64,000 nt of DNA from Escherichia coli (GTDB taxonomy: Bacteria > Pseudomonadota > Gammaproteobacteria > Enterobacterales > Enterobacteriaceae): NCBI RefSeq assembly GCF_965641715.1, contig NZ_OZ282453.1; one strand, 5' to 3'. The position numbers and the translations under genes were made by a program. The notes under the pieces are model-generated. The model made no database searches, was not told where the DNA came from, and saw only the letters and a list, made by a program, of their open reading frames with translations. Shown here in pieces: positions 1,470-27,077 of this stretch; the first letter of the stretch is position 1; every line of letters starts with the position of its first letter.

Positions 1470-3698
1470 TTAAATACTCCCCGCGTTATACCACGTCCCA
1501 TTAATGCAATACTGAATTGGCCTTGCCTGAGTTGTATCAATTAATTCATCACGGTTTCCGTTAACTGAACCCGTAACGACATAACCTGACCTGTCAGACC
1601 AGCCGGGACCATTCCATGTCTGAACAGATGACAGACCGCCAAGGCGAATACCTGTAATAAACCTTGAGTTACATTCTGCCTGCGTGTATGCACCAACATC
1701 TCCCGCAGAGGGTTTGCGGGTCGTGGTGTAAAACTCTGACCAGTTAGCCTCAAATCCATAACCATCACGCGCTGAACGATAAAAAATACCGCCGTTCCTG
1801 TAATTCACGCGGAACTGTACAGCAGGGCAGCTCCCCGTATTCATATTGAAGTGGAGGATTAATGTCGATGCACCGCTGATATCTGCATCATAAACACCGC
1901 TATTCCAGTTCCAGCCAACAGCTTTATCATTTGCAACCCTGCTTCCTGTTTGCCCTAAAGCAAATGCAGGCTGCTGGTTTTTCGTGTTGTAGTCTCTTCG
2001 CCAGCCAGGAGCATAAGCATCACCATGATTAATATAAGTGAATTGAGCGTTAGAGGTGCCGCCTCCGGTGGAAGTGCTTGGTGTTGTTACACGGATGGTC
2101 ATGGCACCTTTATTACCCATAACCTCAATAACGCAACCTGCAAGATGAATAGTTCCACAGCCAGTATCGGTAATAATTTTATTATTGCCGTATGACCATG
2201 AACATTTGCACATCCAGTATGGGTGATTGAATGCCCCTTGAGAATCCAGCCATTCAATCAATTGTGCCGTTGTCCAGTTCCCTGCCCCTGTACTAATAGC
2301 ACTGTGAAAAGCGCGACATGCACCAATATTTTTTGTGAAGGTATCTTTTCCTGGAATATCTGCGCCGTTCTGGTTTTTCTGTAATGCGCCAGAAGCCTGA
2401 TTTACCGTTTCTTGTAAACCGAGGTATTCGATAACGGCAGCAACGGTCGATTTCGCAAGAATATCCCGCCCGACTTTTGTCAGGGTTGCCAGGCTGGCGA
2501 CATCATTCCCCGTAAAATACGGAAACCTGTCTGCCGCAGTAGCAAGCCCGGCCAGCGCCGTCAGGGTGGCATCTTTCGGTTGCTTACCCGCAAGCGCGTT
2601 AGTCATGGTGGTCGCAAAATTCGGGTCGTTTCCCAGCGCCGCCGCTAACTCGTTCAGCGTATTCAGTGCGTCAGGTGACGAATCTACAAGGGCGGCAATC
2701 GCAGCCATAACGAAAGCCGTGCTTGCGATTTGGGTATTATTCGTTCCCTGTCGCGCAGTTGGCGTTGTTGGCGTTCCGGTCAGCGCAGGACTGTTTAAGG
2801 GCGCTTTCTTGTTCGTTTCATCCATTACCGCCTTAACCGCTTTCGATGTCGCGGCCAGTGTTTCAGACGTGCTGTTGGTGGCACTACTGAGCTGGACTAT
2901 CCCTTTTTGTGCCGTCGTGGCGTCCTGAGCGGTATATTTTGCGTTAGCAAGGTCATACGCGGCCTTTACTGCTTTCGGCGTTGCAGCCTGCGTTTCAGAC
3001 GTGCTGTTGGTGGCGCTACTGAGCTGAACTATCCCTTTTCGCGCAGTGGTAGCGTCCTGTGCGGTGTATTTGCCATTAGCCAGGTCATATGCCGCCTTAA
3101 CAGCCTTTGGCGTTGCCGCAAGCGTTTCAGACGTGCTGTTAGTGGCGCTGCTAAGTTGAACAAAGCCTTTTGCGGTCAGCGAGGCGTCCGGGTGACGTCG
3201 TGAGTGTTCATGCTCTTTCAGTTTGTCATCCACGTAATCCACTGTGGCCATTACCATGGTGTTATCCACGGTAAGCGCCACGGTGGCAGTGCTGGATACG
3301 GTCAGAATGGTGCGAAATGTTTGTGCACGTCCTGACCCTTCGGCAACGGTTGGCTTGTAACTTTCGGCAGTATTGCCTACTGCGATTAAATCGCCGTGCT
3401 CATCAAACACACCAATTTCCCGGATCCAGAATCCGCCCGTTTCTGGAGGAATAACCAGCTCCGCAATAATGCGGTTCTGATGTGTTGCGTCCAGGATGAC
3501 GCGATTAACAGTGTGTCGCCACACCTCATGCACCAGACGGGTCTGCTTACTGTCTGGTGTGGGCAACGTGCCGCCACCGTCGCCCACGGCCATATGAGTC
3601 AGGCGGACAGGCTTACCATCTGGCGCGGCTGCCTGAGCTAATTTTTTTGCACCCGTATCGGTGATAACGGTTTTAAATTTTCGTGTTGTGGTACTCAT
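1470..3698 (-). CDS. Tail fibre protein (P2 gpH-like)
   Basis: 742 aa; conserved fibre N-terminus, three internal 44-aa repeats ([10 protein letters not shown]...), C-terminus ...[11 protein letters not shown]; sits between gpI-like and assembly genes. Confidence 0.85.
2830..3215 (-). repeat. Three tandem 132-bp repeats (44-aa units) inside the tail fibre gene
   Basis: Motif gtttcagacgtgctgtt(g/a)gtggc recurs at 2860, 2992 and 3124, period 132 bp; protein repeat ...[13 protein letters not shown](L/Q)AATPKAVKA... Confidence 0.8.
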
Positions 3699-8906: not shown

Positions 8907-9707
8907 TTAAACGCGCTTCGCCTTCTGCGTCGCGGTGGTTTTTCGTGTTGCAGGCTTCCGCGTTGTCTTTTTACTTTTGCTGCTTTCGTCCTGCGCCTGC
9001 TGTGCGCTGGCGTCATCTGGGGCGGCTGCGGAATCGGCTTTTTTCAGGGCGCGGGAAAGGGTTGCAATCTCGCGTTTCACACCTGCGTTCGGGTTCAGGT
9101 GCATCGCTTCGCGCAGCAGCTTCAGTGACAGGGCCATGCTGTCCGCATCGCTCAGGCCACGGCGGGCAAAGGCGCACGCCTTGCATAATTTGGCGCGTAC
9201 TTCGTCCGGCATATCCTGGTCGGTGACAATCTCCCGGAGGGTGTCCAGTGGTTCGATAAAGGCGGACAAATCCGCGTCGGCATCCGTCCCGGCCTGCGTC
9301 AGTACCGGGTTGCAGATTTCTTCGGTCAGCACTGTGGCAGCAGTACGGCCAAAGTTATCCGGCATGATGAGGTTGTGACGGACCACATACGCACCAATAC
9401 GCAATGCCAGCGGAAGATCGCCACAGTCAATCGCCCACACCATCAGCGTGGCAATCACCTCATCCTGCTGCCCGCCGTCAGCCTCCAGCGTTCCTTCAAT
9501 CCAGCCAGAAAAGTCCGGTAACAACTCTTTTTTGATGGCGGCTTTGGCGCTTCTGGCCTGTACGCCCTTAAGTCGGGCCTGTGCCAGACGCAGACGATAC
9601 AGCACCTCTTCATGCGCGGTACGTGCGGCGTGATCCACGCCTTCATTCGCCCGGCCTGCGCGCTGCGCCATCACGTTCTGCCAGTGTTGCTGTGCAGGGG
9701 TAATCAT
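8907..9707 (-). CDS. Terminase small/endonuclease subunit gpM-like
   Basis: 266 aa; position between N and L as in P2. Confidence 0.75.
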   Translation of the reverse strand: MITPAQQHWQNVMAQRAGRANEGVDHAARTAHEEVLYRLRLAQARLKGVQARSAKAAIKKELLPDFSGWIEGTLEADGGQQDEVIATLMVWAIDCGDLPLALRIGAYVVRHNLIMPDNFGRTAATVLTEEICNPVLTQAGTDADADLSAFIEPLDTLREIVTDQDMPDEVRAKLCKACAFARRGLSDADSMALSLKLLREAMHLNPNAGVKREIATLSRALKKADSAAAPDDASAQQAQDESSKSKKTTRKPATRKTTATQKAKRV

Positions 9708-15141: not shown

Positions 15142-15498
15142 ATGGAAATGAATATGAAAACTGTAACTGATGATGAATTTCGTGAGAACCTGAGTGAAAT
15201 TCTGGATTACCTTTCTTCCGGTGGCAGTGTCGTTATCACGGCGCAGGGAGGGAAGGATGTTGTTCTTGCTGGTTCTGATCTTAGTCCTGAAATACGGGCT
15301 GTCCTTGGCAAAACCAAAAAACTGCGGGATCAAATAAACAAAATGAAGCAACCACTCTTAATAAATGCAGTGAGAGATCTGGAAAAACGTCATCCAGCTC
15401 TTGTCGCACAGAGAAAAAAAGGATTGTCTTTTGAAGATGCAATGAAGCGTACAAGAGAAAAACATGCGGATATCATTAAAAAGCTTGAGGATAACTGA
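15142..15498 (+). CDS. phd: Phd/YefM-family antitoxin (118 aa, C-terminally extended)
   Basis: N-terminus ...KTVTDDEFRENLSEILDYLSSGGSVVITAQGGKDVVLAGSD has the Phd/YefM pattern; stop overlaps the doc start (ATGA at 15498). Confidence 0.7.
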   Translation: MEMNMKTVTDDEFRENLSEILDYLSSGGSVVITAQGGKDVVLAGSDLSPEIRAVLGKTKKLRDQINKMKQPLLINAVRDLEKRHPALVAQRKKGLSFEDAMKRTREKHADIIKKLEDN

Positions 15499-15905
15499 TG
15501 GACATAGTGTTTTTGTCAAAAGAACAAGTAGAACGTATCCATGCTGAAACTTTACCCCAGAGCGGAAATGCCAATGACGGGCTACTTGAAGGTGCTTTAA
15601 ATCGCGTCAGGACACTACACTACTATGAAGGGGTTGATGATATTCATGCTCTGGCTGCTATGTATTTGATTGGTATAGCCAAGGCTCATGCCTTTCATGA
15701 TGGGAATAAACGCACAGCTTTTCAGGCTGCATCAATATTTTTAATGATGAACTCTTCCGAACTTTCAAACTCCCTGCTGCTGGTTAAATTAACGGTGTTT
15801 TCAGCAATGGGGATAGCTACCCTTGAGGAAGTTACCTTTGCTTTGAAATTGCTGTCTGATTATGGCAATGAATTAATCAGCGACTACGAAGAAGATTATA
15901 TTTAA
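15498..15905 (+). CDS. doc: Doc-family toxin (Fic fold)
   Basis: 135 aa; Fic/Doc signature HAFHDGNKRTA present; coupled to the upstream antitoxin. Confidence 0.85.
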   Translation: MDIVFLSKEQVERIHAETLPQSGNANDGLLEGALNRVRTLHYYEGVDDIHALAAMYLIGIAKAHAFHDGNKRTAFQAASIFLMMNSSELSNSLLLVKLTVFSAMGIATLEEVTFALKLLSDYGNELISDYEEDYI

Positions 15906-16071: not shown

Positions 16072-16407
16072 TCATTCATGCGTTTTTTCTTCATGGTCTG
16101 TCACTTCTCTCCTGATAACTTCATTGCACAAATCAACGCACTCATTGCAGATGTAAACAGACGGTCCGGCAATCACCTTTGTGACTTCGTACTGGGATTT
16201 ATTGCAGAAGCTGCAATAAATCGTCTCCTCACCTGAAGTCCATGTTTTGCTGGTTTCGCCAGACATCAGTTGTTTGAGGTCTTTTTCACGACGAAGAACT
16301 ATCTGGCCACATTCAGCTATTTTTTGGATGTTGACATTTTCTTCTTTCGCCAGCGCTTCCATCCGCTCAATCAGTCGCTGCGCTTTTTCTCTGTCAATGC
16401 GTTGCAT
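16072..16407 (-). CDS. Small protein with C-terminal ClpX-type C4 zinc-binding domain
   Basis: 111 aa; C-terminus [36 protein letters not shown] matches the ClpX N-domain (LYCSFCGKSQHEV...YICDECVDLCNDII); N-terminal half predicted helical/charged. Confidence 0.7.
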
Positions 16408-16470
16408 TGTGTCCCCCTTGTTTATGTTCCCGGGTTAAAGTCATCAGGGCGGATGCGCCCTGATGTTGTG

Positions 16471-16782
16471 TTATTCGGGAAATAACGCCCGGATATTTCC
16501 GGCCATCTGACTGGTTATCTGTGCGGTTGATACTGGCTGTGACGCGGGGCGTTCTGTCCTGGTTTGTGTCACTGATAACGCTTCATCATCAGCCCATGCA
16601 GCCAGTCGGTAAGCCTCTGCCGGATTCATTTTCAGAAGTGCCAGCCCGGCCAGAAAAGCCACGCGTTGGCCGCTTTTGCGCGCTTCTGGTGTAAGGCTGT
16701 CCAGCCAGGCGCATGCTTCACCTTCGTTCTTGACGGCGGCGGGCTTCAGATAGAAACTTATCCGTCTGGTTGGAGTCGTCAT
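16471..16782 (-). CDS. parR: ParR-like DNA-binding partition adaptor; start at ATG 16782
   Basis: 103 aa from MTTPTRRISFYLKPAAV...; aligns with what I recall of R1 ParR (RRTIAFKLNPDV...LDS...AGLAL); ATG lies 5 nt after the parM stop, with AGGAG upstream. Confidence 0.55.
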   Translation of the reverse strand: MTTPTRRISFYLKPAAVKNEGEACAWLDSLTPEARKSGQRVAFLAGLALLKMNPAEAYRLAAWADDEALSVTQTRTERPASQPVSTAQITSQMAGNIRALFPE

Positions 16783-16786
16783 TGGT

Positions 16787-17746
16787 TTACTCCTTGTCCA
16801 TTGCGTACAGCCCATTAACCAGAGCAAACTGTGGCACCCCGTCCGCGATGAAAGTCGCATTAACTCCGCAGGCTTCGCGGATAGCGGGTGCCACAATCTC
16901 CGCCCCGCCACCGACAACCATCACCCGCCCGTAACCCGAAAAAACCGCCAGCGCGCGGATCACGCGTTGTTTCAGTGTTTCTTCCTTTTCACGAATAACC
17001 GCCATCAGGCTGGCGTAATGCGCGTCATTGTGGATGTGCTGGCGCAACCAGGCTTCATCATGGCGATGTTCGATAATGGTATTGGCGATGTGGTGACTGA
17101 TACGCATACCGTTAGTGGCCATCACCGACAGTACGGCATCGGCCATCAGGGAAACGCCTACGTGTGGATCGCAAAACACCTGGCTGATACCTGCCAGTTG
17201 CCCCTGAACCTTTGCCACATCCAGTGTGGTTCCGCCCAAATCCACAATCAGCAGGGATTCAAGCGGACTCATGTCAGCCAGTGCTTTAAAGCCAGCCGGA
17301 ATGGATTCAGGCATAACCCGTACGTTACGGATAGTGAATGTTTCGCCGTTCTGGTACTCCACCGGGCGCATAACGTTCGCTTTTTTGCGGCTGATGTTGG
17401 CCATGTCCGGCTGTGCGTTTGTGTCGAAATACTCGCTCAATGGCAGGGTGACAACCACATCCACCTCCTGTGGCGTGATGCCTGATTTGACCAGCGCGTG
17501 ATGAATGGCAATGACATTCACATCGCTGTACTGGTATTGCGTGTCGGTCGTCTGGACAAAGCGATCGCTGACCGGATCAAAACCATAGCGCACGCCATCA
17601 AGCATGTAGTTCGCGGGCTGCGAGCCACCGAACGGCGCAGACCATTCCGACTTGAAGCTGTTCGGGCTGATGGCGTTGCGGCGTTCGCCGTTCTCAGTCC
17701 ATGCCAGCTTGATGTTGGTGGAGCCGTCGTCGATACAAATTTTCAT
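16787..17746 (-). CDS. parM: ParM/StbA actin-like partition ATPase
   Basis: 319 aa; MKICIDDGSTNIKL..., ISPNSF, YSDVNV, KKAN, FTI.NV.VMPESIPAG, DLGGTTLD and VMV.GGGAE blocks parallel plasmid R1 ParM. Confidence 0.9.
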   Translation of the reverse strand: MKICIDDGSTNIKLAWTENGERRNAISPNSFKSEWSAPFGGSQPANYMLDGVRYGFDPVSDRFVQTTDTQYQYSDVNVIAIHHALVKSGITPQEVDVVVTLPLSEYFDTNAQPDMANISRKKANVMRPVEYQNGETFTIRNVRVMPESIPAGFKALADMSPLESLLIVDLGGTTLDVAKVQGQLAGISQVFCDPHVGVSLMADAVLSVMATNGMRISHHIANTIIEHRHDEAWLRQHIHNDAHYASLMAVIREKEETLKQRVIRALAVFSGYGRVMVVGGGAEIVAPAIREACGVNATFIADGVPQFALVNGLYAMDKE

Positions 17747-17783
17747 GTCGCTTTTCCTTATGTTGATTAATTAATCGTTTACA

Positions 17784-17890
17784 GGATTTTTAAATCCCGC
17801 TTTTGCCTGTTTTGTGCGCGCTTCATATATCGCGGCACGTTTTTTGCTCATTTATGGGATTTGTGAATCCCGTTTCTGTCTGTTTTTTGT
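17784..17890. repeat. Two imperfect 33-bp direct repeats, each with a GGGATT/AATCCC hairpin and T-run, upstream of parM and overlapping the 3' end of gene A
   Basis: GGATTTTTAAATCCCGCTTTTGCCTGTTTTGTG (17784-17816) and GGATTTGTGAATCCCGTTTCTGTCTGTTTTTTGT (17857-17890). Confidence 0.5.
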
Positions 17891-20645
17891 TTCCACTGGT
17901 CAGGCCACCCCGCAGCAGGTCTGCTTTGCGGCTGGCGCGTTCAGTGGTTTCACTGATTCTCTGTGCGTGCTCTGCGTCGCGGATGGCGCGCAGCATGTCA
18001 GAAAGCACGGTAACGGGTGTTTTCATGGTGTTCTGGTCCTGCTGAAGTGTGGATGCCAGGCGTGCGGCGGCTTCAGGGTCTGATGCCCCCAGCTGTGCCA
18101 GATAGCTGGCGACCGGGTTATGGCGGATCTCCGTGCTGCTTACGCCATGATTACGGCTCAGGCGCTGCCAGAGCTGCGTGATTCGGCTGTCCGGGCGGGT
18201 ATCCGGTTTGCGTACAATTTCAAATCCCTGCGGTGCAATGATGCTGCCGTCAACGTACAGACTGCCGCCCCGTAACAGGTGCTGCATCTGTTGTTCACCG
18301 ATATGCAGGCCGAGAGATTCAGCAGACTCCCGCCATTCTTTAGCGAGTAATTCGTGGTTATCAGGCAAAGGCCGTGGCTGTTTGCGGCTCTGTGTCCAGC
18401 TCTGCATTTCATCACTGCTGTTTTTTGCCTGTTTGTCACGAAGCGAACGCATCAGCGCCCGGCGTTCGTGCCGTTTCAGTGAGCGCATCCATTCGTTCAC
18501 GTCAACGCCGTCAGGAAGCTGCGGCCACGGTGCTGGCCGTTCTTTCGACTGTTCTGTCCCGCTGTTGCCTGTTTCCTGTACACGGGGACAGTTATTGCCA
18601 CGAGTCCAAGGGGCGGCAGGGCCGCCCTGAAGGTCAAAACCATTTTCGCGGGCGCTGTCTTCCGTTTCCGGTTTACGTCTTACCAGTTTCCAGTTATCCG
18701 GATGCGTGCACACACGGGAGGATTCCCCGATGAGTGGTGACCAGATCCCGTAAATCTGTACGCTCTGTTCGCCGTAATCATTCAGCTCATCTGCGAGGTC
18801 GTAGGCGGTGCGAATCAGGTAGTCTTTGCGTGGAACAAGTACGCCGCCCTGTTTTTCAATGTAGGTGGCAAAACACCCGGCATCGGCGGCAGCGAGTACC
18901 GCATCCATTGCGTCATCTTTCAGTCGTTGCGGGCCTTCCGGGTTGCGTGCCATCTGGCTGGCAAGGCGGCGCAGTTCACGCCACACCTGACGGGAGGGGA
19001 TGCCAAAGAACTGGAACTGGCGGACCCGATGAAGGCGCGCCCAGCCGATGGCGCGCTCCACACTCTCGGCCATTGATTTTCCGGTTTCGTGGTCAACGCG
19101 TGGCTTGCCCGTTTTCGGGTCGATGCCATCCACGGCGCGGCTGTCCAGGTTCTTTCCGATGTAGGTCGCGATATAGCTGGTTGGTGTGCCTTTTGAGCCG
19201 TCGACATACTCCGCCTTAAAGCGCGGAGTAATATCATTGCCCAGCTCGTGGCGGTCTTCCTGAATGGCAATATCGCGGGTGATGGCCACGATGCTGTCGA
19301 TTTCTTCCGGATGAGCAAAGACCATCATATGCCAGTGCACGGTGCCGTCATGGTGAGGCTCCACCGTGCGGATGCCATACCAGCGAAGACCGTCGCGGTT
19401 CAGTTTTTTGCGGACCGCCGCAAAAAACGTGTTAACCAGGTAATCGCTGGAGTCGCGCATGGTGGCCCCGTTCCATTTGGGATTCGGATGACCGTTCTCT
19501 GTTGTGGCGTGGTATTTTGACGGGCAGGTGACAGTCAGAAACACCGCTTTGTCGCCACGGGCTTCGGCCAGAAGTTCCAGCCCCTTCATGGTGGCCATCA
19601 TTTCTGCCTTACGGTGAACCGGGTTACTTACTCCCGCGTAATACACCGTCTCGAGATCAATCGTGAACCCGTCTTCATTTTCCAGCATGAAACTTTTCAG
19701 GAAATCGCGTGTTTTCTCGCGCTGTGCGCGAAACTCGCTTAACGCGTCCTGGCTCAGATAGGGCGATGTTTTTCTGGAAACCAGACAGGCGGCGCGGAGT
19801 TGTTCTTCTCTCCACTCGCAACGTAACAGCCACAGTTTGCGTTTCCACCATTCTGCACAGGTCAGGCGAAGGATTGCGCCCGGCAGCAGCTCCGTGTCCG
19901 GTTCGTTCCTCTGGTCTTTGTCTGTTGTCAGTGCGTCATAATGTGGAGGCATGGCGTGCAGGTGTAACGCCATGCGGGCCAGCATCTGATACGCCTTCAG
20001 CGTTACATCCATGGTCAGTTCGCCATCGGTCGCGCCAAAGCCATCGCAGAGTTTTTCGAAGGTGCTGCTGAACATCGCCGCCGTCATGGTGGCCAGTGTC
20101 TGTATCTGGTGTTTGTTGAGCTGCGGCAGGTAAAGCAAATCGTCCAGGCGTTCGCGTCCGGCAAGGGAGCGATAACCCTGTGTCAGCCAGCGGTGATCGG
20201 TGCGCTCCAGACGTTCGAATATTTTGCGCAGGTTTCCGCGCGCGTAGCGTTCAGCCTGCCAGCTCTTTTTGCCTTTCTGACGATCGGCTTCCTGTTTTTT
20301 GCGCAGGAAGGAGAGGTGGCGAATAAGCGGATCGCGCAGATAGGACGGCAGCAGGCGCAGCGAGGCCATGGCTTCATCCACCGCGCCGCGTGCCTGTTTT
20401 CTGGCATCTCCTGCCAGTGTGATGGTTTTGTCCTGTTTTTCCTGTGCGTCCAGGCTTTTATTAATCAGGTTGCCCAGCGGCGTTGCGGAGAACGCCGCAT
20501 CAGCCATTTCCTGGCGGTGCTCGTTCTCTACCCGGTAGGCATCCAGCCAGGAGGAAAGCGCGGATTCAGGAGCGGGGATCCCCGTTCCTTCACGCCCCAC
20601 TGCGTGGCGCGGTTGTTGCCAGTCCCTGATGTACTCTGCCGTCAT
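17823..20645 (-). CDS. Replication initiation protein (P2 gpA-like rolling-circle endonuclease)
   Basis: 940 aa; P2 A position; HUH-like motif ...HHDGTVHWHMMVF...; translationally coupled to the upstream 121-aa ORF. Confidence 0.65.
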   Translation of the reverse strand: MTAEYIRDWQQPRHAVGREGTGIPAPESALSSWLDAYRVENEHRQEMADAAFSATPLGNLINKSLDAQEKQDKTITLAGDARKQARGAVDEAMASLRLLPSYLRDPLIRHLSFLRKKQEADRQKGKKSWQAERYARGNLRKIFERLERTDHRWLTQGYRSLAGRERLDDLLYLPQLNKHQIQTLATMTAAMFSSTFEKLCDGFGATDGELTMDVTLKAYQMLARMALHLHAMPPHYDALTTDKDQRNEPDTELLPGAILRLTCAEWWKRKLWLLRCEWREEQLRAACLVSRKTSPYLSQDALSEFRAQREKTRDFLKSFMLENEDGFTIDLETVYYAGVSNPVHRKAEMMATMKGLELLAEARGDKAVFLTVTCPSKYHATTENGHPNPKWNGATMRDSSDYLVNTFFAAVRKKLNRDGLRWYGIRTVEPHHDGTVHWHMMVFAHPEEIDSIVAITRDIAIQEDRHELGNDITPRFKAEYVDGSKGTPTSYIATYIGKNLDSRAVDGIDPKTGKPRVDHETGKSMAESVERAIGWARLHRVRQFQFFGIPSRQVWRELRRLASQMARNPEGPQRLKDDAMDAVLAAADAGCFATYIEKQGGVLVPRKDYLIRTAYDLADELNDYGEQSVQIYGIWSPLIGESSRVCTHPDNWKLVRRKPETEDSARENGFDLQGGPAAPWTRGNNCPRVQETGNSGTEQSKERPAPWPQLPDGVDVNEWMRSLKRHERRALMRSLRDKQAKNSSDEMQSWTQSRKQPRPLPDNHELLAKEWRESAESLGLHIGEQQMQHLLRGGSLYVDGSIIAPQGFEIVRKPDTRPDSRITQLWQRLSRNHGVSSTEIRHNPVASYLAQLGASDPEAAARLASTLQQDQNTMKTPVTVLSDMLRAIRDAEHAQRISETTERASRKADLLRGGLTSGNKKQTETGFTNPINEQKTCRDI

Positions 20646-21320: not shown

Positions 21321-21642
21321 GGTGTGGCCCCTTGTGTAGTAAGTTGTGAAAACTCACCATCCAGAGCTGCGAAACTGTGGGTGGCGAGACGTACGAGGTT
21401 CGCAGTACCGGCTACACAAGAACCCGGCCCGACCGAAGTCGGCCCCGTACGCCCCGCCATAATTCTGACGCGAAAAAAACGTGGCAATACAGTACGCACA
21501 AAAAAACCGCTGGCGCGGTTGTGCGCTTGTGTAGTCAGCAGGCTGCGAAACCCGGCACCCGTTTTGTGAGGTGCAGCGGAAATGTAACCTGACTGATTGC
21601 GGCATGGCAAGCGGTTTTTTTGTGTGTGCATGTTCTGGTTTC

Positions 21643-24660: not shown

Positions 24661-24756
24661 GGCCAGAAAACTGGTTAGACCTGCTTTTTGTCTGGTCTGA
24701 TTATTGCTGGAAAGAGGCTGGAGAAATTGTAGAGCGGTTCATTGGAGGGCTTCGTA

Positions 24757-25761
24757 ATGTCGATTAAGAAGCTCGAAGATGGTCGTTATTTGCTGGACAT
24801 CAGGCCGAACGGACGCAAGGGAAAGCGCGTGCGTAAGGTATTTGACAAAAAATCGGTAGCGGTGGCCACTGAACGCTACATCATGGCGAACGCTGAAAAG
24901 CGGGAATATATACAGGGCTACCGTGATCGTCGAACGCTAAATGATTTGCTTGAGTTGTGGTGGATGTATCACGGCCAGCACAGGCGTAAGGCGGAAGAAG
25001 ACCGAAAACAACTGCGCAACATAATCAATGAGCTTGGCGCTGATATGCAGGCTGTGGATCTTGATAAGCTGAAAATTATCGCGTGGCGTTCTCAAAAGAT
25101 AGCTGAAGGATTGAAACCGTCATCTGCTAACAGGTACATGAATCGGTTATCCGGAATGTTTACCGTGCTGAAAAAAATAGGTCTTTGGGATGCAGAACAT
25201 CCAGTAAGGGGAATTTCTATTCTTTATGTATCTCCACGAGAAATGGCGTTCCTGTCACAGAAGGAAGTGGCGCTATTGCTCGATACACTGGAGGGCGACT
25301 ACTGGCGTGTTGCGCTTTTGTGTTTAAGCACAGGGGCGCGCTGGAGTGAAGCTTGTAAGCTTCGTGGTGAACAGATAGTTCATAACCGTGTAACGTTTCT
25401 TGAAACCAAAAATGGCCGGAAGAGAACAGTGCCAATTTCGCAGGCAGTTTGTGAGGCGATCAAAACCAGAGAAACAGGCGGCTTGTTTGAGGTGAAGTAC
25501 CGGGAATTCTGCCTGGCGCTGAAAAGAGTTAAGCCCGACTTACCAAAAGGCCAGGCTGCACATGTGCTGCGGCATACGTTCGCCAGCCATTTTGTGATGA
25601 ACGGAGGAAACATTATTGCGCTTCAGAAGATTCTTGGTCACGCAACCATTCAGCAAACAATGGCATATGCGCATTTTGCACCGGATTACCTGCAGGATGC
25701 GGTGGCCCTTAATCCGCTGAAAGGTGGCGTAAGTGTCCACGCAGTGTCCACGGGGGATTAA
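24757..25761 (+). CDS. int: Tyrosine integrase, P2 type
   Basis: MSIKKLEDGRYLLDIRPNGRKGKRVRKVFDKKS... parallels the P2 Int N-terminus; ATG 24757 preceded by GGAGGG; C-terminal catalytic region HVLRHTFASHFVMNGG...LGH. Confidence 0.9.
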   Translation: MSIKKLEDGRYLLDIRPNGRKGKRVRKVFDKKSVAVATERYIMANAEKREYIQGYRDRRTLNDLLELWWMYHGQHRRKAEEDRKQLRNIINELGADMQAVDLDKLKIIAWRSQKIAEGLKPSSANRYMNRLSGMFTVLKKIGLWDAEHPVRGISILYVSPREMAFLSQKEVALLLDTLEGDYWRVALLCLSTGARWSEACKLRGEQIVHNRVTFLETKNGRKRTVPISQAVCEAIKTRETGGLFEVKYREFCLALKRVKPDLPKGQAAHVLRHTFASHFVMNGGNIIALQKILGHATIQQTMAYAHFAPDYLQDAVALNPLKGGVSVHAVSTGD

Positions 25762-25919
25762 TTTTATATAGCCTGAAACGGCTTAAAGGGCGATACTGAA
25801 TAACAATTTTTCAGTATTGCCCGTCTAAATGGTTATGTTGTTATCTGTATGATTATTAATGTTTTTTCAGATTAAACAGCAGTTTGCAAATGGGCGTTTG
25901 TTGATAAAGGAGCCTTAGA

Positions 25920-27077
25920 TTGTCAGAGACTGAAAAAGGGTTAAAAATCCTTGTTGATGAAAATATGCCTTATGCCCGCGACTTATTTAGCCGTTTGGGT
26001 GAGGTGACCGCGGTTCCCGGGCGTCCAATCCCCGTCGCTCAACTGGCAGACGCGGATGCGCTGATGGTGCGTTCGGTCACGAAAGTGAATGAATCTTTGC
26101 TGGCAGGAAAACCCATTAAATTTGTTGGCACTGCCACTGCGGGGACCGACCATGTCGATGAAGCATGGTTGAAGCAGGCGGGAATTGGTTTTTCCGCTGC
26201 ACCTGGCTGTAATGCGATTGCGGTGGTGGAATATGTTTTCTCCTCCCTGCTGATGCTTGCCGAACGCGATGGATTTTCACTGCACGAGCGTACCGTGGGG
26301 ATCGTGGGCGTTGGTAATGTTGGTCGGCGTTTACAGGCACGACTGGAAGCGTTAGGGATTAAAACCTTGCTTTGCGATCCGCCTCGCGCTGACCGTGGGG
26401 ATGAGGGTGATTTCCGCTCGCTGGATGAATTAGTTCAGCATGCGGATATTCTGACTTTCCATACGCCACTTTTCAAAGACGGGCCGTACAAAACGCTGCA
26501 TCTGGCGGATGAAAAACTGATCCGTAACCTGAAGCCAGGAGCGATTCTGATTAACGCCTGCCGTGGCGCAGTCGTCGATAATACCGCGCTGCTGACCTGC
26601 CTGAATGAAGGCCAGAAGTTAAGCGTAGTGCTGGATGTCTGGGAAGGCGAACCGGAACTTAACGTGGAGTTGCTGACAAAAGTGGATATCGGCACGCCGC
26701 ATATTGCAGGCTATACCCTGGAAGGTAAAGCACGCGGTACTACGCAAGTGTTTGAAGCCTATAGCAAGTTTATTGGGCATGAACAGCACGTTGCGCTGGA
26801 TACATTACTACCCGCGCCAGAGTTTGGTCGCATTACACTGCATGGCCCGCTCGATCAACCGACGCTGAAAAGGCTGGTGCATTTGGTGTATGATGTGCGC
26901 CGCGATGACGCACCGCTGCGTAAAGTCGCCGGGATACCGGGTGAGTTCGATAAACTGCGCAAAAACTATCTTGAGCGCCGTGAATGGTCATCTCTGTATG
27001 TAATTTGTGATGACGCCAGTGCGGCATCATTGCTGTGTAAACTGGGTTTTAACGCCGTTCATCATCCGGCACGTTAA
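25920..27077 (+). CDS. pdxB: Erythronate-4-phosphate dehydrogenase; start codon uncertain (TTG 25920 or ATG 25965)
   Basis: Near-identity over ...[21 protein letters not shown]... to E. coli PdxB as I recall it. Confidence 0.9.

Follow-up and report, generated by a model that had tools for sequence, protein, structure and literature searches.

Among the closest described relatives of the genes treated here are the ParMRC systems known from the parA locus of plasmids R1 and R100. We analyzed a related cassette in a 64,000-nucleotide stretch of Escherichia coli DNA (assembly GCF_965641715.1, contig NZ_OZ282453.1; this whole stretch is called the window below), where a parM and a parR gene, preceded by a candidate centromere, are carried by an integrated prophage similar to phage P88. 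The cassette appears to have the parts list of a working type II (ParMRC) system and to be fixed in the early, replication-side gene block of P88-like phages. Its two genes are:

16787..17746, minus strand: parM, coding for a 319-amino-acid (aa) actin-like ATPase, the putative type II partition motor (phrog_691, 'partition protein')
16471..16782, minus strand: parR, coding for a 103-aa protein, a predicted ribbon-helix-helix centromere-binding adaptor with a putative C-terminal ParM-binding helix

The likeness to R1 and R100 includes the order of the parts (parC, parM, parR), a ParM that is 47% identical over its full length and has the same nucleotide-binding motifs, a ParR that is similar in its N-terminal region (34% over 56 aa) and in its C-terminal N-x-x-x-[LM]-[FI] tail, and a GGG/CCC core in the DNA repeats of both. 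The replicon, however, is an integrating phage of the P2 family with rolling-circle replication. Whereas the parC of R1 and R100 has ten 11-base-pair (bp) direct iterons around the promoter, which in R100 form an A/C-rich array at the same position, here we see two 20-bp palindromes located 73 bp apart, the distal one within the upstream coding sequence. The plasmid ParR is also longer (116 aa versus 103 aa), and the phage ParR is without a conserved segment of about nine residues.

A ParMRC-type system on a normally integrated element is known from the SXT/R391 integrative and conjugative elements (ICEs), in which srpMRC, together with rolling-circle replication by the relaxase and a toxin–antitoxin pair, keeps the excised form from being lost (Carraro et al., 2015, PMC4489591). 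There the system acts on an excised circle with a rolling-circle initiator, beside a toxin–antitoxin pair, and a parallel set can be found in the phages: gpA (the product of the replication gene A), parMRC and Phd/Doc here, HicAB in Serratia, and hok beside ogr in P88-like genomes. Yet the carrier of srpMRC is an ICE and not a phage, and SrpM and SrpR are distant from the R1 proteins whereas the phage proteins are close family members. Moreover, the function of srpMRC was demonstrated, whereas that of the phage cassette is predicted from sequence.

Another related case is the CGP3 prophage of Corynebacterium glutamicum, where AlpC and its adaptor AlpA tether the phage circles to actin-like filaments and replication is efficient only in their presence (Donovan et al., 2015, PMC4446434). 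Here too, an integrated prophage has an actin-like filament former and a DNA-binding adaptor; the adaptor binds upstream of its own operon (alpS), the genes are induced early and the target is the circular phage DNA. In contrast to our locus, AlpAC belongs to another actin-like family and is found in another host phylum, its adaptor gene comes first, and its role was shown experimentally.

Temperate phages with plasmid partition genes are also known among the plasmid prophages (P1, D6, N15 and the P2-like KS14). D6 has a StbA-type ParM that is 47.5% identical to the ParM described here, and KS14 has P2-like morphogenesis genes and a RepB/ParA system (PMC3091744). However, these are plasmid replicons for which integration is not the normal state, whereas the lineage studied here has an integrase and an attachment (att) site. 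Nearest of all are P88 and other Xuanwuvirus phages (NC_026014; phiSM; PHROGs 691 and 2515), which have the same genes at the same position with 94–98% protein identity and show no substantive difference.

The presence of ParM and ParR in P88-like phages is already on record. RefSeq names the two proteins 'plasmid segregation protein ParM' and 'plasmid partitioning/stability family protein', and PHROGs holds families for both. Pfeifer et al. (2021, PMC7969092) noted parMR in P88 and suggested episomal plus integrative states, and in the paper on phiSM the gene is counted among the fitness factors (PMC6456863). P88 itself is inducible by mitomycin from the chromosome and forms plaques (PMC5285337). 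The literature searched contained no functional work on the ParMR of P2-like phages. The present analysis adds how deep the conservation reaches across genera, how strong the selection is and a two-palindrome candidate centromere that is unlike the R1 parC.

The ParM and ParR proteins

The 319-aa protein aligns with solved structures of R1 ParM (PDB 1MWK among them) from residue 2 to residue 316 with E=7.5e-94, and BLASTP gives 47.2% identity to R100 ParM over the full length. In Pfam it matches the StbA_N domain (5.6e-82) and the ParM C-terminal domain (5.4e-68). The initial annotation had compared this protein to R1 ParM block by block, and all of these blocks (IDDGSTNIKL, ISPNSF, YSDVNV, RKKAN, VMPESIPAG, DLGGTTLD and GGGAE) are indeed present in the alignment. 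The nucleotide-binding motifs are the same as in R1, with phosphate 1 as DDGST, connect 1 as PESxPAG (R1 E148), phosphate 2 as DLGGTT (R1 D170) and adenosine as GGGAE, and in an alignment of 63 ParMs the DDGST, PESIPAG, DLGGTTLD and GGGAE motifs are invariant. Mutation of the ATPase residues, along with a ParR that does not bind the adjacent repeats, had been proposed as the mark of a decaying remnant; these motifs are intact and ParM is therefore not such a remnant. In the fused AF2 model described below, the ParM part has a predicted local distance difference test score (pLDDT) of about 95. By homology, this open reading frame (ORF) is a full-length ParM with all catalytic motifs present, and its product would be expected to polymerize into filaments.

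The parR ATG is located on the same strand, 5 nucleotides (nt) past the last base of the parM stop codon, which is where a 103-aa ORF with a likeness to the N-terminal region of ParR had been reported. This likeness is borne out by Pfam family PF10784 (Plasmid_stab_B, 2e-24) and by 34% identity to R100 ParR over the N-terminal 56 aa. Modeling in AlphaFold (pLDDT 77.6) results in an extended N-terminal strand that is followed by three helices, a disordered linker (62-85) and a C-terminal helix (86-100). The only strong structural match to this ribbon-helix-helix model was pB171 ParR; no solved structure matching ParR by sequence alone was found. Both the family domain and, as predicted by the model, the N-terminal ribbon-helix-helix fold of a ParR are present.

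The C-terminal region of R1 ParR contacts ParM (PDB 4A62). All of the aligned ParRs, taken from R100, an IncI1 plasmid, an Erwinia plasmid, an integrated plasmid, an ICE and five phage lineages, have in common a tail motif of the form basic-N-(A/I)-x-x-(L/M)-F, which reads GNIRALFPE in the window, and among 26 sequences N96 is invariant and F101 nearly so. We also modeled (AF2) a fusion in which ParM is joined by a flexible linker to the 30 C-terminal residues of ParR. In this model the tail forms a helix with a pLDDT of 80-90, compared with 73-79 in ParR alone, which lends weak support to an interaction between the tail and ParM.

In E. coli, the P88-like ParR is found in two allele classes of 103 and 104 aa that are about 55% identical (down to about 50%); across these classes ParM keeps at least 97.5% identity, and residues 1-18 of ParR do not vary. 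The differences concern the 3' half of parR (window 16471-16600), and the variable cargo beyond the cassette seems to have its mosaic boundary inside this gene. We considered whether the allele diversity stands for new centromere specificities and rejected this option, as the DNA-reading N-terminal strand is invariant, both classes are located beside the same palindromes and the divergence is found in the disordered linker.

A candidate centromere upstream of parM

Repeats had been reported at 17747-17900, directly upstream of parM. In this interval we find two 42-nt direct repeats, each with a palindrome, and thus two sites that do not form an R1-type array:

17775..17889, minus strand: candidate parC region, with the two 42-nt direct repeats (17775-17816 and 17848-17889) around the gene A stop codon
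17781..17800: proximal 20-bp palindrome, minus-strand reading GCGGGATTTAAAAATCCTGT, a candidate ParR site 52 nt upstream of the parM ATG
17854..17873: distal 20-bp palindrome, minus-strand reading ACGGGATTCACAAATCCCAT, a second candidate ParR site within the last codons of gene A
17823..20645, minus strand: gene A, the upstream neighbour of parM, coding for a 940-aa P2-type rolling-circle replication endonuclease

The direct repeats are 79% identical with a spacing of 73, and the palindromes that they contain are positioned at -52 and -125 relative to the parM ATG, with 73 bp between the sites. The distal palindrome falls within the last 17 codons of gene A (window 17823-17873), which code for …TGFTNPINEQKTCRDI and the stop; a distal site that overlaps the upstream coding sequence is also seen in Hafnia and Plesiomonas. 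The palindrome consensus is ACGGGAYT-N4-AATCCCGT. When the motif CGGGAYT-N4-AATCCCG was searched with up to two mismatches there were 6 strand-hits versus 0.71 expected, and in the prophage part of the window it appears only in these two places; a third locus, with two mismatches, is in host DNA.

Comparison of 80 P88-like loci shows that the arms CGGGAYT and AATCCCG are conserved and that the 4-nt spacer is variable (CACA, CACG, TCAG, TAAA), as expected for a protein-binding palindrome. In the more distant Hafnia and Plesiomonas phages, whose ParM is 61-62% identical, there are two GGG-N10-CCC sites that are 73 and 72 bp apart, respectively, at the same distance from the ATG. The Serratia and Enterobacter sites have inverted arms and the same GGGAAC core and are 46-47 bp apart. 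The GGGA core is accompanied by an invariant Arg in the N-terminal strand of ParR. The A-tract (bending) periodicity of the candidate parC is not significant (p about 0.08); among the relatives, the periodicity is significant in R100, Serratia and Enterobacter and not in Hafnia and Plesiomonas.

One alternative explanation is that the palindromes are transcription terminators or a simple operator, and that the true parC lies elsewhere or is absent. On the plus strand each palindrome is followed by a T-rich run, one of them being flagged as terminator-like, and two sites are far below the number in known parC loci. Yet the hairpins are weak (-7 to -9 kcal/mol) and those of the plus strand are no better than shuffled sequences (z -0.3 and -0.5). 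In Hafnia and Plesiomonas pairing is possible only for GGG/CCC, and still the spacing and position are kept, so that what is conserved is the sequence (CGGGA) and not the pairing. The motif also has no further copy in the prophage. We therefore regard this alternative as improbable, and the terminator version of it as weakly supported at best.

A more probable option is that the two palindromes are a candidate centromere to which ParR may bind. About 10 short direct iterons flanking the par promoter, as in the R1-type array, are not seen here, whereas a site directly upstream of parM that is conserved along with the genes is present, which gives the region the position and logic of a parC with an architecture unlike that of R1. 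Scans for sigma-70 promoters ahead of parM returned nothing usable, either for the window or for four divergent loci, and since the same scan misses the known R100 parA promoter it is uninformative and we draw no inference on transcription from it. No Rfam families were found within the parMR cassette.

Conservation, selection and genomic setting

The parMR region is found in 1324 of 5426 complete E. coli genomes (~24%). The gene A type was found in 1432 E. coli genomes, and this near-equal prevalence indicates that parMR is essentially a core gene of the P88-like lineage. The pair had been called unusual for a prophage that integrates; this is true of integrating phages as a whole, whereas in the present lineage it is a core pair that occurs in about a quarter of the complete E. 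coli genomes. Within 82 sampled P88-like loci the 319-aa parM ORF is intact in all 82 and parR in 80, with pairwise ratios of nonsynonymous to synonymous substitution (dN/dS) of 0.075 and 0.24, respectively. Both genes are under purifying selection.

Scanning of genome contigs with a single protein resulted in only three near-identical loci. A search of 5.8 billion proteins returned ParM intermediates with 55-62% identity in Hafnia, Plesiomonas, Serratia and Enterobacter. These four divergent relatives are located in P2-like prophages with a PF10784 ParR and have the same slot order of gene A, parM, parR, cargo and portal. Homologues of 50% identity or less on long contigs belong to an integrated plasmid and an ICE, and the ParMs of true plasmids do not exceed about 53% identity. 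Most records at 95-99% identity that are called 'plasmid' are in fact chromosome fragments under a wrong label or large plasmids into which a copy has integrated. Among the phage records only the P88-like phages and the plasmid-prophage D6 (47.5%) have a ParM. In a neighbour-joining tree the phage ParMs are apart from the plasmid and ICE ParMs, with bootstrap values of 200/200 for the subclade and 127/200 for the whole phage clade.

These results also bear on the option that the cassette was captured as a plasmid fragment and is now a functionless remnant in decay. Beyond the plasmid-type annotation nothing points to this. The ORFs are intact and under selection as described above, the catalytic motifs are all preserved, the slot is conserved in five genera at 55-62% identity and the nearest true plasmid ParM is only about 52% identical. 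Such a remnant is hardly credible. The comparisons indicate that the cassette is an old module which was kept vertically in this branch of P2-like phages, and neither a remnant nor a recent capture; the distance of the nearest plasmid ParM speaks against the latter. Since purifying selection has kept it in the P2-like phages of five or more enterobacterial genera, the cassette clearly does something for the phage.

The carrier in the window is an integrated P88-like prophage (Xuanwuvirus, Peduoviridae, P2-family) at pdxB. The 2-kb region is 97.6% identical at the DNA level to phage P88 and about a dozen related isolates, including Citrobacter phage phiSM, and the carrier has P2-type structural and replication genes, a tyrosine integrase and a junction with a host gene. 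The match to the circular P88-like genome stops at window 25963, in the first codons of pdxB and with the integrase adjoining, which confirms the earlier placement of the pair within an integrative prophage. The phage end (window 25900-25963) has a copy of the pdxB ribosome-binding region and first ~25 nt; the attachment core therefore overlaps the start of pdxB, whose 5' end is restored by the prophage. Other features around the cassette are:

16442..16465, just 3' of the parR stop codon: G+C-rich hairpin with a 10-bp stem (7 GC pairs)
16072-16407, minus strand: 111-aa ClpX-zinc-finger protein directly downstream of parR (phrog_6797; also in P88)
15142-15905, plus strand: intact Phd/Doc pair (antitoxin 118 aa, toxin 135 aa) with overlapping stop and start, in the cargo slot between parR and portal
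21377-21464, minus strand: C4 antisense RNA in the early region upstream of gene A, a full-length match to Rfam RF01695 (83 bits, gathering score 45)
24742-25761: tyrosine integrase ORF that adjoins the phage/host junction

On the minus strand the gene order is cox … A, parM, parR and the small ClpX-zinc-finger protein, followed by Phd/Doc on the other strand and the portal gene. In P2, the interval between A and the portal gene is a known cargo region (tin/old). Here parMR occupies the A-proximal edge of this interval and the variable cargo is found beyond parR, with HicAB, a KAP NTPase or DUF3800 instead of Phd/Doc in other lineages. Gene A is annotated as a replication endonuclease and matches phrog_91 ('nicking at origin of replication', 1e-275); its product would be the maker of the circular copies on which the cassette would act. 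The hairpin behind parR is a possible end of the parMR transcription unit, with a T-rich tail on the plus strand only and hence an uncertain role on the minus strand.

The 111-aa protein has a coiled N-terminal part and, of ClpX, only the C4 zinc-finger N-domain (NCBIfam clpX residues 60-107). The Phd of P1 is a ClpXP substrate and a Phd/Doc pair is adjacent, and for these reasons the protein might be a modulator of ClpXP substrate choice.

For the annotated gene map we used the prophage of E. coli RM10740, which was the best local match and is identical to the window only around the query. In the RM10740 prophage an IS66 element has inserted in the tail-fibre region, a block of tail genes is inverted and gpD is truncated, yet parMR is intact. 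It belongs to a different strain, and neither the insertion nor the inversion is found in the window, where the tail-fibre ORF (1470-3698) is intact and codes for 742 aa. Outside the window, a gene of the hok/gef family is located beside ogr in P88-like genomes (RM10740 prophage 9133-9273; NZ_CP148288.1 1291-1431). With parMR and hok, homologues of both classical R1 stability loci (parA = parMRC, parB = hok/sok) occur in one phage genome.

Possible roles of the cassette

Since the genes are under purifying selection, the cassette should be in use, and we lean towards a partition or positioning device that would work on extrachromosomal circles of the phage genome, as suggested by its genes and by analogy to the systems described above. 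In such a mechanism, ParR dimers would bind the two palindromes upstream of parM via their N-terminal ribbon-helix-helix, and the C-terminal helix of ParR (…GNIRALFPE) would capture the ends of ATP-bound ParM filaments. Growth of a filament between two ParR–DNA complexes would then push the two DNA copies apart. As to expression timing, substrate and pay-off, we infer that the cassette would not act on the integrated prophage but on the circular genome while it is copied by gpA, after infection or after excision by Cox and Int, because parMR lies behind gene A on the strand of the early operon and because integration is the resting state of the prophage. The pay-off may be that copies are spread in the cell and both halves keep one until (re)integration, or that replication and packaging become efficient.

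Several observations weigh against a device of this kind. The candidate parC offers only two sites (perhaps four ParR dimers) compared to the ten iterons of R1 parC. The P88-like ParR is without a helical segment of about nine residues that is conserved in other ParRs, and its linker is hypervariable. The cassette also resides almost exclusively on chromosomes (1475 of 1477 occurrences in the complete E. coli genomes), and when the early operon is on the cell normally lyses, so that a pay-off in inheritance is not obvious.

Lysis leads to another hypothesis, in which the cassette has no part in inheritance at cell division and only spreads the replicating circles, after induction or infection, for replication and packaging. 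Such a role would fit genes that come immediately after gene A and share the strand of the early operon. P2-type replication leads to monomeric circles, which are the packaging substrate. There is also the precedent of CGP3, where AlpA and AlpC are induced early and are required for efficient replication (PMC4446434). However, the ParM found here belongs to the plasmid ParM family and not to the AlpC family, and P2, 186 and other relatives replicate well without a ParM, which is absent from the other phage records. We consider an exclusively lytic role to be a tentative option, less likely than a partition or positioning device in the broader sense. With sequence data, a lytic pay-off resembling that of AlpAC and an inheritance pay-off resembling that of srpMRC are not separable.

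At the other extreme, the phage could be a facultative phage-plasmid that, as an alternative to integration, is inherited as a low-copy episome, with gpA for its replication, ParMRC for its partition and toxin–antitoxin genes to police it. The same was proposed for P88 by Pfeifer et al. (2021, PMC7969092), and the P2-like phage KS14 is a plasmid prophage (PMC3091744), although it runs on RepB/ParA and not on gpA/ParM. Toxin–antitoxin genes are present as well: Phd/Doc adjoins the cassette in the window, Serratia has HicAB, and hok is a neighbour of ogr. Moreover, one complete P88-like genome was deposited as a 34.5-kb circular replicon. This record, NZ_CP148288.1 (1-34461), is called a 'plasmid' in the database, is 34,461 bp long and has int, cox, A, parMR, structural genes, ogr and hok, and a phage 99.9% identical to it is chromosomal in a sister strain. 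The record indicates that the circle can be abundant; it may be merely induced phage DNA, and inheritance does not follow from it. The other 'plasmid' records have the trivial origins given above, and the chromosomal location of nearly all occurrences speaks against an episomal life. To our knowledge no copy-number control exists for rolling-circle replication of the gpA type, which we also count against this option. A heritable phage-plasmid state thus seems unlikely.

If the cassette does act on phage circles as a partition or positioning device, its role would show how an integrating phage employs a plasmid-type cytoskeletal motor, be it for lytic DNA handling, as episomal insurance or in a hidden plasmid state. 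The locus can also serve as a test case of whether a two-palindrome centromere can drive ParM-based segregation. If it can, this would be the smallest parC known for the family, and a two-site parC would be a compact tool for vector stabilisation. Should the phage-plasmid explanation turn out to be true, a quarter of E. coli strains would carry a latent phage-plasmid with a dual lifestyle.

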